From Escherichia phage vB_Eco_T-01: 64,000 nucleotides of DNA. The notes beneath the pieces were generated by a model. That model did not search any database. It had not been told where the DNA came from and saw nothing but the letters and a program-made list of their open reading frames with translations. Made by a program: the position numbers and the translations under genes. Position 1 is the first letter of the stretch. Each line of letters begins with the position of its first letter. This document shows positions 43,497-45,551 of the stretch, piece after piece. The stretch lies in the sequence record PQ438391.1. One strand, 5' to 3'.

Positions 43497-43760
43497 ATGA
43501 AATTTAAATTCTTTTATGTTAAACATAAAATCACAGGTGAATTTGTTTATGTACAATATTCTGAAATTGACGATGCAACATCATTTATTTCATTGGGATT
43601 GTCTAAATATGAATCAGATCAACCATATCTTACTGATAAATTGCAACAAGAGCGTTTGTTGAATGGCGATTTAAACAATTCTTGGGAAGTTCTTATTTAC
43701 GATGATTTAAAGAAAGCTATTAAAGAAAATAATCTTGAAATCATTGAGATTGAACTATGA
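43497..43760 (+). CDS. hypothetical protein
   Basis: 87-aa ORF after a promoter-leader cassette. Confidence 0.45.
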   Translation: MKFKFFYVKHKITGEFVYVQYSEIDDATSFISLGLSKYESDQPYLTDKLQQERLLNGDLNNSWEVLIYDDLKKAIKENNLEIIEIEL

Positions 43761-43843
43761 GTTCATTGTGGTGGTGTTTTGTTTGGTTAATTAGTATTCC
43801 AGTAATTTGTTTAACATTTACTTTTGTAATGAGGTTATTATGA
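43757..43843 (+). CDS. hypothetical hydrophobic micro-protein
   Basis: 28 aa; ATG overlaps previous stop (ATGA). Confidence 0.25.
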   Translation: MSSLWWCFVWLISIPVICLTFTFVMRLL

Positions 43844-43938
43844 AAATTTTGAATTCTGTACTTATTGCTTGTGCATGGTGGGTTGCGCAAGTTTCGGCAG
43901 TCGTGATTGGTATTCACATTTATTACGAATATTTTTAA
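43840..43938 (+). CDS. hypothetical hydrophobic micro-protein
   Basis: 32 aa; ATG overlaps previous stop. Confidence 0.3.
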   Translation: MKILNSVLIACAWWVAQVSAVVIGIHIYYEYF

Positions 43939-43944
43939 AAAAGT

Positions 43945-43996
43945 TGTTTACAAGACTGTTCTTCCGTGGTACTATTACCCTATCAACTACGGAGGA
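43945..43996 (+). repeat. promoter-leader cassette copy
   Basis: Near-identical promoter segment to 16247..16277; leader CTATCAACTACGGAGGAACA shared with 43473..43493. Confidence 0.7.
43946..43975 (+). promoter_or_regulatory. T4-type early promoter (GTTTAC ... TGGTACTAT), cassette copy
   Basis: 30/31 nt identical to 16247..16277. Confidence 0.6.
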
Positions 43997-44003
43997 ACAG
44001 AAA

Positions 44004-44117
44004 ATGAAAAAGATTATTAAAGCTATATGGAATGTAGTTATAATACTAATAGTTTTGAGTATATTCCCAATCGTTTTAATGATTGATGTATTAAACGCTT
44101 ACTTTGGATTTATGTGA
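44004..44117 (+). CDS. hypothetical hydrophobic micro-protein
   Basis: 37 aa; ATG after the cassette leader ACGGAGGAACAGAAA. Confidence 0.3.
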   Translation: MKKIIKAIWNVVIILIVLSIFPIVLMIDVLNAYFGFM

Positions 44118-44124
44118 GGAAAAT

Positions 44125-44322
44125 ATGAAGCGTAAACGCAGTGCTTTTACATTTATTGAATGGTTTTTCGATAATATTTTTCCAGCTTTATTCATTTTCA
44201 TGCTGATTTTTGCCTTAGGTTCAGTTGTAGTTGGAATCTATTTGATGGCGGTAGTCGGAATGGATATTCATCAAAATGGTTTAAAATCTGTGGTTGAAAC
44301 AATTTGGAATGGTGTAAAATGA
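44125..44322 (+). CDS. hypothetical membrane protein
   Basis: 65 aa with two hydrophobic segments; GAGGAAAATATG. Confidence 0.4.
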   Translation: MKRKRSAFTFIEWFFDNIFPALFIFMLIFALGSVVVGIYLMAVVGMDIHQNGLKSVVETIWNGVK

Positions 44323-44429
44323 TGAATTTACTAAACATTTGGTTTTATATTCTTATGTTTTACATTGGTGCAAATTTTCCATATTGGATGGGATGGTCAA
44401 CAACTGCATTCGGATTTTATACTCCTTGA
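44319..44429 (+). CDS. hypothetical hydrophobic micro-protein
   Basis: 36 aa; ATG overlaps previous stop. Confidence 0.3.
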   Translation: MMNLLNIWFYILMFYIGANFPYWMGWSTTAFGFYTP

Positions 44430-44437
44430 GGTAAATT

Positions 44438-44653
44438 ATGAAAAGCTTTAAAGATGTAAAAGTTGGTGAAATTTTCTGTTTAGATAACGGTGATCAGTTA
44501 ATTCGCATTTCACCTCTTAAGAGCACTAGCGAGAAACCGACAGTTAATGCTACTTTAGCAAATAACAGTAATGAACGTTTCTGTATTGAAAATGATACTG
44601 AAACTTATACCGTAGAAGAGTTTTGGGAATTGAGCGTCGACTGCGACGATTGA
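44438..44653 (+). CDS. hypothetical acidic protein
   Basis: 71-aa ORF. Confidence 0.45.
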   Translation: MKSFKDVKVGEIFCLDNGDQLIRISPLKSTSEKPTVNATLANNSNERFCIENDTETYTVEEFWELSVDCDD

Positions 44654-44713
44654 TTTAATGGCCGTGTGTATTCATGCGGCCTTGGAGTAGAAAATAATTT
44701 AGAGGAAATTAAT

Positions 44714-45172
44714 ATGAAATACATGACTGTTACTGATCTGAATAATGCAGGCGCTACCGTTATTGGTACAATTAAGGGCGGTGAATGGTTTTTGGGAACT
44801 CCACACAAAGATATTTTATCTAAACCTGGATTTTACTTTTTAGTAAGTAAATTAGATGGTCGTCCATTTAGTAATCCATGTGTGTCAGCACGATTTTATG
44901 TAGGTAATCAGCGTTCTAAGCAAGGATTCAGCGCAGTTCTAAGTCATATTCGTCAACGCCGGTCTCAGCTTGCTCGTACTATTGCAAATAATAATGTTCC
45001 ATACACAGTATTTTATCTGCCTGCTTCTAAGATGAAACCTCTGACGACAGGATTTGGAAAAGGCCAGTTAGCTTTAGCGTTTACTCGTAATCATCATTCT
45101 GAGTATCAAACACTTGAAGAAATGAACCGTATGTTGGCTGATAACTTTAAATTCGTTTTGCAGGCATATTAA
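44714..45172 (+). CDS. ndd: nucleoid disruption protein Ndd
   Basis: [28 protein letters not shown]... recognised as T4 Ndd; ATG at 44714 with GAGGAAATTAAT RBS. Confidence 0.85.
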
Positions 45173-45259
45173 TGAGTAATTTCCACAACGAACACGTGAT
45201 GCAGTTCTATCGTAACAATCTTAAAACCAAAGGCGTCTTCGGACGCCAGTGAGGAAAAT

Positions 45260-45418
45260 ATGAATATCGCAAAATTATTAGGAGTTATTTCATTTATTTG
45301 TTGGATAGTAGCATGTGTTTTAACTATCTGTATCGATGCTAGCAGTGTGTTTTCACAAGCTTTAGCCCAGGGTATGTGTGCATATTTAACATTTGTGTTA
45401 TTATCTACTAATGATTAA
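45260..45418 (+). CDS. hypothetical small membrane protein
   Basis: 52-aa hydrophobic ORF with GAGGAAAATATG. Confidence 0.35.
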   Translation: MNIAKLLGVISFICWIVACVLTICIDASSVFSQALAQGMCAYLTFVLLSTND

Positions 45419-45551
45419 GAAAATCTTGGGCTATTCATTAGCCCTTGCTACTTTATTGGTAGCACTATATTATGGAGTAATGTTCGGATTAATTCAAGTC
45501 GTGCTTTTCATTTCTGATGTTATTATGGCACTACATTCACTAGTATGGTAA
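45411..45551 (+). CDS. hypothetical small membrane protein
   Basis: 46-aa hydrophobic ORF overlapping the previous stop. Confidence 0.3.
   Translation: MIKKILGYSLALATLLVALYYGVMFGLIQVVLFISDVIMALHSLVW

Follow-up and report, generated by a model that had tools for sequence, protein, structure and literature searches.

Between denB and gene 52 of Escherichia phage vB_Eco_T-01 (PQ438391.1), seven very short open reading frames (ORFs) follow one another around ndd, at positions 43,757 to 45,551 of the 64,000-nucleotide (nt) stretch of DNA that was analysed as a whole and is referred to here as the window. Are these ORFs genes, and if so, what could such a chain of small peptides do early in infection? 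A first-pass annotation, made from the letters of the sequence, had described them as strongly hydrophobic and translationally coupled and had proposed a role as host-membrane effectors. All seven could be confirmed in position, in length (28, 32, 37, 65, 36, 52 and 46 amino acids, aa) and in their ATG starts.

Judged by nucleotide identity, the window belongs to a T4-like phage (Tequatrovirus) that is not T4 itself and is approximately 96-97% identical to its nearest relatives. Hereby, a megablast search with positions 43400-45600 matched 560 phage records, nearly all of them Tequatrovirus, with a top identity of 97.5%, and a 20-kb query from the window reached a top identity of 95.9%. Between 41.6 and 47.0 kb the plus strand carries rIIB, denB.1, denB, short ORFs, ndd, stp, further short ORFs, gene 52 and motA.1, a gene content which identifies the rIIB-denB-ndd-52 early region of a T4-like phage, oriented in reverse of the T4 map. 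The seven ORFs, all on this strand, map one-to-one onto T4 genes (NC_000866 annotation, T4p275-T4p265): 43757-43843 corresponds to ndd.6, 43840-43938 to ndd.5, 44004-44117 to ndd.4, 44125-44322 to ndd.3 plus ndd.2a (a single intact 65-aa gene in the window), 44319-44429 to ndd.2, 45260-45418 to ac and 45411-45551 to 52.1. Gene order, junctions and PHROG and Pfam families are the same as in T4, and the peptides are 94-100% identical; the window phage differs in carrying an additional 87-aa ORF ahead of ndd.6, an intact 65-aa gene instead of the split ndd.3 and ndd.2a of the T4 reference, an Ac protein of 52 aa instead of 51 aa and the conserved 37-aa form of ndd.4. PHROG families were matched by 7/7 ORFs with E values from 1e-17 to 1e-30, and Pfam places the 65-aa product in DUF7248 and the 46-aa product in DUF7396, far over the cutoffs; beyond these two families Pfam returned sub-threshold noise only, and Rfam gave no match in 42500-47200. 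The seven ORFs are already known, being long-annotated T4 genes with entries in Pfam and PHROGs, and are nothing new in kind; ac has been under study since the 1960s. The earlier implication that they had been missed reflects a 60-aa cutoff in the underlying ORF list and nothing else.

To assess selection on these ORFs, the region was aligned with that of 17 other tequatroviruses, including T4, RB27, RB51, AR1, Shfl2, Sf24, Ge15 and five IMG/VR contigs, so that counts are given out of 18. As an IMG/VR scan with an Ndd query had yielded five loci only, GenBank phage records were used for the further relatives, and occurrence was counted by tblastn in 50,697 phage genomes. The alignment contains intact copies of all seven ORFs apart from two cases, an insertion in ndd.6 of one phage and a frameshift in the T4 reference. 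The ratio of nonsynonymous to synonymous differences in frame (pN/pS, Nei-Gojobori) is 0.09 for ndd.6, 0.09 for ndd.5, 0.07 for the 65-aa gene, 0.13 for ndd.2 and 0.02 for the T4-type allele of ac; in the two off-frames it is mostly at least 0.8. Over all seven ORFs the variable sites are distributed 20/15/64 on codon positions 1/2/3. Within the genus, ndd.4 yields 0.94, based on eight variable sites and thus uninformative, and 52.1 a weak 0.31. Between genera, with synonymous sites near saturation, dN/dS amounts to 0.13-0.17 for ndd.4 (against Dhakavirus and Kanagawavirus) and to 0.06-0.25 for 52.1 (against Dhaka-, Mosig-, Jiaoda- and Kanagawavirus). Nonsynonymous divergence (pN) of the micro-peptides, at about 0.01-0.03, is similar to that of Ndd, while the adjacent 87-aa ORF, with a pN of 0.18, changes roughly ten times faster. 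Taken together, the alignments show the seven ORFs to be real protein-coding genes under purifying selection at the amino-acid level, in the annotated frame only. The first-pass annotation had named a lack of purifying selection as the outcome that would speak against it, and the frame-specific constraint found here is the opposite outcome.

The predicted membrane character of the products is pronounced. The best 19-residue Kyte-Doolittle window scores between 2.18 and 3.06 for six of the ORFs and 1.29 for the ndd.2 product, whose low score results from its 34% aromatic residues and which contains no charged residue at all; the soluble neighbours reach 0.48 (ndd.1), 0.49 (ndd) and -0.85 (stp). 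Moreover, each of the seven peptides contains an uncharged run of 21-35 residues, compared to 6-12 in the soluble neighbours. Topology and localisation were read from simple hydropathy, and Wimley-White values were used in a supportive manner only. On these measures each peptide is shown to be dominated by one or two hydrophobic helices of membrane-spanning length, so that the hydrophobicity described earlier is borne out. For the products of ndd.5, ndd.6 and ndd.2 a database label reads 'outer membrane protein'. A length of 28-36 aa is far below what a barrel requires, and only ndd.5 among the three contains a lipobox-like LIAC (residues 8-11, read by eye from the sequence); an inner-membrane helix appears to be the simpler reading than an outer-membrane protein or a lipoprotein. 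Holins or other lysis-timing proteins were also considered and rejected, given the early promoters, the early T4 transcripts and the lack of a charged tail in most peptides.

The first two genes of the chain are the shortest. The ndd.6 product, 28 aa with one predicted transmembrane helix, is identical to T4 Ndd.6 and belongs to phrog_8851 (E 1.6e-17, residues 1-28/28), an assignment that agrees with its syntenic position after denB and its 4-nt overlap onto ndd.5. It is intact in 17/18 aligned phages and occurs in 502 records; the deviating phage, L003, carries a genuine 2-nt insertion that changes the C-terminus. Other apparent breaks of ORFs in the alignment were dismissed as artefacts at poly-A runs 3' of the stop codon. 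The likewise syntenic ndd.5 (32 aa, one predicted transmembrane helix) overlaps ndd.6 in an ATGA and is preceded by a GAGG Shine-Dalgarno sequence (SD). Its product belongs to phrog_5011 (E 3.9e-26, residues 1-32/32), shares 31/32 residues with T4 and was found intact in 18/18 phages and in 493 records. The 37-aa ndd.4 product combines a lysine-rich N-terminus (K2, K3, K6) with one predicted transmembrane helix; the gene lies behind the second early promoter, and the product is a member of phrog_3098 (E 7e-21, residues 1-37/37), with homologues at the equal position in Dhakavirus and Kanagawavirus, intact copies in 18/18 phages and 595 records. The 42-aa form annotated in T4 begins at a T4-specific ATG within the SD, and the conserved product has 37 aa.

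The 65-aa product shows a KRKR N-terminus, a 30-residue uncharged stretch and an amphipathic C-terminal tail. It belongs to phrog_2401 and to PF23906 (DUF7248; 71.9 bits, gathering cutoff 27; model positions 4-57/58), and 493/494 tblastn records carry it in a single frame. The syntenic ndd.2 product is assigned to phrog_4135 (E 6.2e-24); 32-36 of its 36 positions are identical among relatives, and 518 records contain it. Hereby, the first ATG at 44319 is ATA in 7/18 aligned phages and the second, at 44322, is invariant. Thus, ndd.2 probably starts at 44322 rather than at 44319, which would give a 35-aa product (44322-44429) and a TGATG/TAATG overlap with the 65-aa gene; gene models of both ndd.2 and ndd.4 should use the conserved start. 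The 46-aa product of 52.1 covers its family completely (PF24129, DUF7396; 81.9 bits, gathering cutoff 27; model positions 1-46/46; phrog_3595) and is found in 812 records. The gene ends 4 nt ahead of gene 52. In Tequatro-, Dhaka-, Mosig-, Jiaoda- and Kanagawavirus it always directly precedes gene 52, at a distance of 4-5 nt in the cases measured, and all five genera retain the C-terminal core of its product, LYYG...VLFISDVI...SL[IV]W, the deepest conservation among the seven. A search of PDB sequences with Ac, 52.1 and the 65-aa protein gave no match at E <= 5. As 52.1, ndd.4 and the Ac family extend over at least three to five genera of the Tevenvirinae, they are the best candidates for functional work. 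A separate observation concerns the T4 clone T4_583L (L021, MZ375356.1, 654-785), in which a deletion with its junction at a short AVVG repeat has left an in-frame fusion of ndd.5 (its initial 22 codons) with ndd.2a (its final 21), with loss of ndd.4 and most of the 65-aa gene; this laboratory derivative further indicates that both genes are dispensable.

Why, then, does T4 appear to possess two genes where the window has one? In the T4 reference NC_000866 one G is missing, near 166623/166624, directly behind ATGAA in the 65-aa gene. The annotated 'ndd.3' is consequently read out of frame, and 'ndd.2a' comprises only the C-terminal 40 residues. In the resequenced T4 clone OL964745.1 the G is present and the ORF is intact and identical to that of the window. 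'ndd.3' is a PHROG singleton with neither homologues nor a UniProt entry, and the HIDEN-SEQ annotation of T4D lists it with a length of 82 nt. Compared across these records, T4 'ndd.3' is an artefact of the missing G in the reference sequence. Hence, the unit to study is the intact 65-aa gene, and 'ndd.3' should leave T4 gene lists and screens.

The arrangement of the genes points to joint expression from two early promoters. Downstream of the T4-type promoter 1 (43441-43469, plus strand; TTTACA, 17 nt, TG-extended TACTAT), a conserved leader with SD extends to 43496; the T4-type promoter 2 (43947-43975, plus strand) precedes the same leader and SD, here up to 44003. Promoter, leader and SD thus constitute a repeat, GTGGTACTAT-N4-CTATCAACTACGGAGGAACA with a GGAGG SD, at 43441-43497 and 43947-44003. 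The 34-40-nt promoter/leader repeat occurs in two copies only in the 64-kb window and in none of the shuffled sequences; T4 has the same early promoter after denB. Promoter 1 would drive the 87-aa ORF, ndd.6 and ndd.5, and promoter 2 ndd.4 and the later genes. From the 87-aa ORF to motA.1 the intergenic distances are -4, -4, 65, 7, -1 (or -4), 8, 60, -1, 7, -8, 4 and -4 nt, the 65-nt gap containing a promoter and the 60-nt gap a hairpin. The ATGA overlaps described earlier occur at 43757, where the partner is the 87-aa ORF, and at 43840; ac and 52.1 instead share an 8-nt overlap (45411/45418, ATGATTAA), and 44319-44322 reads ATGATG, with the probable later start of ndd.2. At two further junctions the stop lies in the SD (TGAGGAAAATATG, ahead of 44125 and 45260); these belong to a 16-mer, GTGAGGAAAATATGAA, that is identical at 44114-44129 (ndd.4/65-aa gene) and 45249-45264 (stp/ac) and places the TGA stop inside the next SD. 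The good ribosome binding sites described in the first-pass annotation exist as strong SDs (GGAGG or GAGG) ahead of 43840, 44004, 44125 and 45260; the sequence is only weakly SD-like at 43757 and 44319/44322, and no SD is visible at 45411. As ndd.6, ndd.2 and 52.1 lack a good SD and their starts overlap or abut the stop of the gene before, they are most naturally read as being reached by termination-reinitiation. The two early promoters and the tight stop/start junctions support coupled early expression, whereby we infer the coupling from this geometry.

The 87-aa ORF at 43497-43760 (plus strand; phrog_2390) provides a further hint. Its predicted product is soluble, its stop overlaps the ndd.6 start in an ATGA, and it is hypervariable, with at least three very different allelic forms in close relatives, of which only the first and last few codons are constant; it is absent from T4. 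In its place, between denB and ndd.6, the T4 sequence (L001) contains an unannotated 8-codon ORF (ATGAAAATCGCTGAGATTGAACTATGA, MKIAEIEL) with a GGAG SD, whose stop overlaps the start of ndd.6 in an ATGA as well. That T4 has lost the 87-aa ORF yet keeps this mini-ORF with its ATGA suggests that ribosome delivery to ndd.6 is selected, and the mini-ORF looks like a retained coupling leader. In RB27, the same slot is occupied by an unrelated 68-aa ORF.

Two explanations would deprive the peptides themselves of any meaning. Short hydrophobic ATG-ORFs are common in this AT-rich window (36 on the plus and 22 on the minus strand at equal threshold) and an annotated T4 neighbour, 'ndd.3', is an artefact, so that the chain might consist of chance ORFs or annotation noise. 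However, the 1.8-kb region contains six ATG-ORFs of at least 28 aa with a Kyte-Doolittle window of at least 1.6 on the plus strand and none on the minus strand, against a mean of 0.93 (sd 0.93, maximum 5) in 2000 first-order Markov simulations of matched composition. This local excess, the frame-specific selection, the intact state of the ORFs in hundreds of genomes and their curated Pfam and PHROG families contradict a chance origin, to which we assign next to no probability. Alternatively, the act of translation alone could matter, with functionless peptides encoded by leader or spacer frames that pass on ribosomes or tune neighbouring genes. Such a role would fit the starts that have no good SD and depend on overlaps, as well as the T4 mini-ORF, which seems to be placed solely to deliver ribosomes to ndd.6. 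Yet, as this same mini-ORF demonstrates, a frame can couple translation without having the length or the sequence of a complete peptide, and purifying selection acts strongly on amino acids amid many synonymous changes. In addition, all members, and distant genera too, retain a hydrophobic composition of transmembrane length, and the published resistance allele of ac is a missense change (G38R), which points to a function of the peptide. We therefore regard translation without peptide function as very improbable.

The only one of the seven genes with a known phenotype is ac; the other six are without one. The window product, a predicted two-helix hairpin, is assigned to phrog_2501 (E 3.7e-25) and equals T4 Ac plus one Thr; T4-type ac is present in 471 records. 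According to classical genetics wild-type T4 is sensitive to acriflavine and ac mutants are resistant. According to a 2025 preprint, expression of Ac in E. coli raises sensitivity to acriflavine and ampicillin, and the same preprint proposes, as a hypothesis, that Ac blocks AcrAB-TolC (10.1101/2025.06.30.662393), an assumption which was taken over by a 2026 PNAS paper (PMC13250531). Phage PP01, whose Ac carries the additional Thr, is reported to be still acriflavine-sensitive (10.1101/2025.06.30.662393); the window encodes the same +Thr variant. The resistance substitution G38R falls in an AQG motif that is kept in 6/7 Ac-family sequences from five genera. In other phages (L008, L009, L010, L011, L022 and L023) the content of the ac slot varies: divergent alleles of the RB51/Shfl2, JS98, Mosigvirus and Jiaodavirus types are 24-39% identical to T4 Ac; Dhakaviruses have an unrelated 53-aa two-helix ORF there, and JS98 carries two ac-slot ORFs, one of them unannotated (L008, 3094-3255). 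A C-terminal -ND is found in 4/5 aligned Ac-type alleles and in the unrelated WG01-type ORF of the same slot, this ending being dictated by the 8 nt shared with the 52.1 start (MIK).

What could the peptides do? We consider it reasonably probable that they are early inner-membrane micro-proteins which alter envelope physiology via conserved host membrane proteins, with the action of Ac on efflux as paradigm. This reading follows from their transmembrane-only architecture, early timing, dispensability in rich laboratory conditions and near-invariance. Hereby, host RNA polymerase would produce two polycistronic early mRNAs in the first minutes of infection, from which ribosomes would translate the ORFs in series, with ndd.6, ndd.2 and 52.1 presumably reached by termination-reinitiation. 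The peptides would then insert into the cytoplasmic membrane of the host and, as viral counterparts of bacterial small-protein regulators, may pack their helices against those of conserved inner-membrane machines. Drug efflux (AcrAB-TolC) would be the likely target of Ac, acridine accumulation being a side effect, and one or more of the other peptides are candidates for a stimulation of phosphatidylglycerol synthesis. In T4, the 3.4-kb deletion sa-delta-9, which removes 52.1 through denB, is viable with a burst of about 50% and abolishes the stimulation of phospholipid, especially phosphatidylglycerol, synthesis by the phage (PMC6071114). The region is the only mapped determinant of the T4 effect on host phospholipid synthesis (PMC6071114), and next to this unmapped lipid phenotype lie six micro-proteins without assigned function, whose conservation ranks with the highest of all small genes in the genus. 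As a tentative extension, which we deem possible but would not expect, the peptides could form a toolkit in which each binds a different conserved inner-membrane machine, Ac acting on AcrB and at least one other on proteins of phospholipid synthesis or transport. If true, this would explain the unmapped stimulation that is lost in sa-delta-9. In line with an early role, time-resolved transcriptomics of T4 assigns the transcripts of ndd.2-ndd.6, ac, stp and 52.1 to the 'early' class (PMC9697503 Table S2).

Several observations weigh against an action on host membrane proteins. Shotgun proteomics of T4 did not detect Stp or any of the seven peptides (Class_P NA; PMC9697503 Table S2); Ndd and Ndd.1 were detected in the same study, the latter as early (PMC9697503). 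Non-detection is, however, expected for tiny hydrophobic peptides. In CRISPRi-ART, a genome-wide screen in a laboratory host, all seven genes scored 'Not Fit' (PMC11879866). HIDEN-SEQ, likewise genome-wide and performed in a laboratory host, lists ndd.2-ndd.6 and 52.1 (seven entries) as 'Non-essential', with insertions tolerated at most or all sites (6/7 to 18/18). The link between Ac and AcrB is hypothetical, and a BLASTP comparison of Ac with AcrZ gave no alignment at E <= 100. Finally, the phosphatidylglycerol phenotype maps to the whole of sa-delta-9, which also removes denB, ndd and stp, and phage deficient in dCTPase, EndoIV and Alc likewise show no stimulation (PMC6071114). The responsible gene may therefore not be a micro-ORF, and the lipid phenotype could equally stem from denB or another deleted gene. 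In the literature on T4 ribosome profiling and T4 small membrane proteins we found nothing specific to these genes, and PMC6024815 does not mention them. The idea of host-membrane effectors is thus supported for Ac, by acridine sensitisation and the AcrAB-TolC proposal, and for none of the other six, which have no phenotype.

Two functional alternatives have to be weighed against an effect on envelope physiology. The peptides might be anti-defence or exclusion factors, which neutralise membrane-located defences of the host or a prophage, comparable to rII against RexAB, or block superinfection as Imm and Sp do. In favour of this, the accessory region that holds the ORFs is early and non-essential and extends between rIIB and stp, two genes concerned with host or prophage systems; the ORFs show no phenotype in laboratory strains, and the divergent ac-slot alleles together with hydrophobic ORFs that come and go between ndd and stp resemble an arms-race pattern. 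Against this, six of the seven are near-invariant over about 500 phages from many hosts, unlike typical counter-defence genes. The near-invariance of the peptides compared to the variable 87-aa ORF fits conserved partners better than arms-race targets. PADLOC returned only a weak match to a transmembrane stretch of KwaA (E = 0.012), which we judged meaningless, and the HIDEN-SEQ text, with not every conditional table covered, mentions no defence-dependent phenotype for these genes. Nothing ties any of the seven to defence inhibition or exclusion, two of the roles suggested at the outset, and we hold this explanation to be rather unlikely. Alternatively, the peptides could serve machinery encoded by the phage itself, by anchoring it to the membrane or aiding its assembly, as 52.1 might do with the topoisomerase or others with Ndd; this would account for the position of 52.1 directly ahead of gene 52 and for the conservation of its C-terminal core in five genera. 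Knock-down of gene 52 is nevertheless deleterious and that of 52.1 is not (CRISPRi-ART), insertions in 52.1 were tolerated at 16/16 sites in HIDEN-SEQ, and synteny with gene 52 may reflect translational coupling or an absence of recombination sites. Such a service appears distinctly improbable, and we retain inner-membrane micro-proteins directed at conserved host partners as the preferred explanation.

The remaining features of the region are either soluble neighbours or additions to the chain. Tightly packed with the micro-ORFs, ndd.1 (44438-44653, plus strand) encodes an acidic, soluble protein of 71 aa and no membrane peptide. Between it and ndd (44714-45172, plus strand; nucleoid disruption protein, 152 aa) lies a GC-rich hairpin with a 9-bp stem (44660-44681, plus strand; centroid -15.3 kcal/mol, z = -2.7). 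It has no T-run 3' of it and may serve in the processing or stability of RNA or act as a weak terminator. The gene stp (45172-45252, plus strand; phrog_6763), which overlaps ndd in a TAATG, encodes a hydrophilic 26-aa activator of the host PrrC anticodon nuclease that is identical to T4 Stp. Gene 52 (45556-46884, plus strand; topoisomerase II medium subunit) forms the downstream end of the chain. Its stop overlaps in an ATGA with a motA.1 homologue (46881-47030, plus strand), whose Gly/Ala-rich, hydrophobic product of 49 aa prolongs the series of hydrophobic ORFs past the end given in the first-pass annotation. Some relatives contain an extra hydrophobic ORF of about 52-57 aa directly after ndd, ahead of stp where stp is present (L010, 2077-2250; L013, 2071-2244; L008, 2545-2718; L023, 2213-2371; L024, 1256-1429); absent from the window and from T4, it is another membrane micro-protein that comes and goes. 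The promoter/leader repeat may represent a recombination-prone regulatory cassette flanking swappable ORFs. In the CRISPRi-ART guide table, an nrdC.8 guide carries an off-target flag against ndd.4, which suggests a similar leader upstream of T4 nrdC.8. At the threshold used above, the whole window holds 36 hydrophobic ATG-ORFs of 28-70 aa on the plus and 22 on the minus strand, about 30 of the former outside this region (for example 395-544, 974-1186, 17198-17347, 17938-18066, 40580-40690, 42355-42447 and 59433-59579). Some of them may be further small membrane genes annotated in T4; many probably arose by chance or lie out of frame.

How do the seven peptides compare to known small membrane proteins? 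Type I toxin peptides such as Hok, TisB, Ibs and Ldr consist of a hydrophobic single helix of 20-50 aa and act on the inner membrane. Similarity to them is given by small size, hydrophobicity and the predicted inner-membrane location; in contrast to these toxins, however, no antisense RNA partner or toxin-family match was seen for the seven, and they form an operon of coupled ORFs instead of isolated loci. T4 itself possesses small membrane proteins with assigned roles, namely Imm and Sp in superinfection exclusion and RI and RIII in lysis inhibition. These are likewise small, early, non-essential and located in the envelope, but the seven showed no sequence relation to them and have no known phenotype in exclusion or lysis, and most of the seven are much shorter. 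Bacteria use small inner-membrane regulators in pairs with larger partners: AcrZ with AcrB, MgrB with PhoQ, MgtS with MgtA and SgrT with PtsG. The seven differ from those in being phage-encoded and expressed early, with binding to a host protein proposed for Ac only, and Ac is predicted to have two helices where AcrZ has one. They resemble these regulators in a length of about 30-65 aa with one or two transmembrane helices, and the proposed target of Ac, AcrB, is the very pump to which AcrZ binds.

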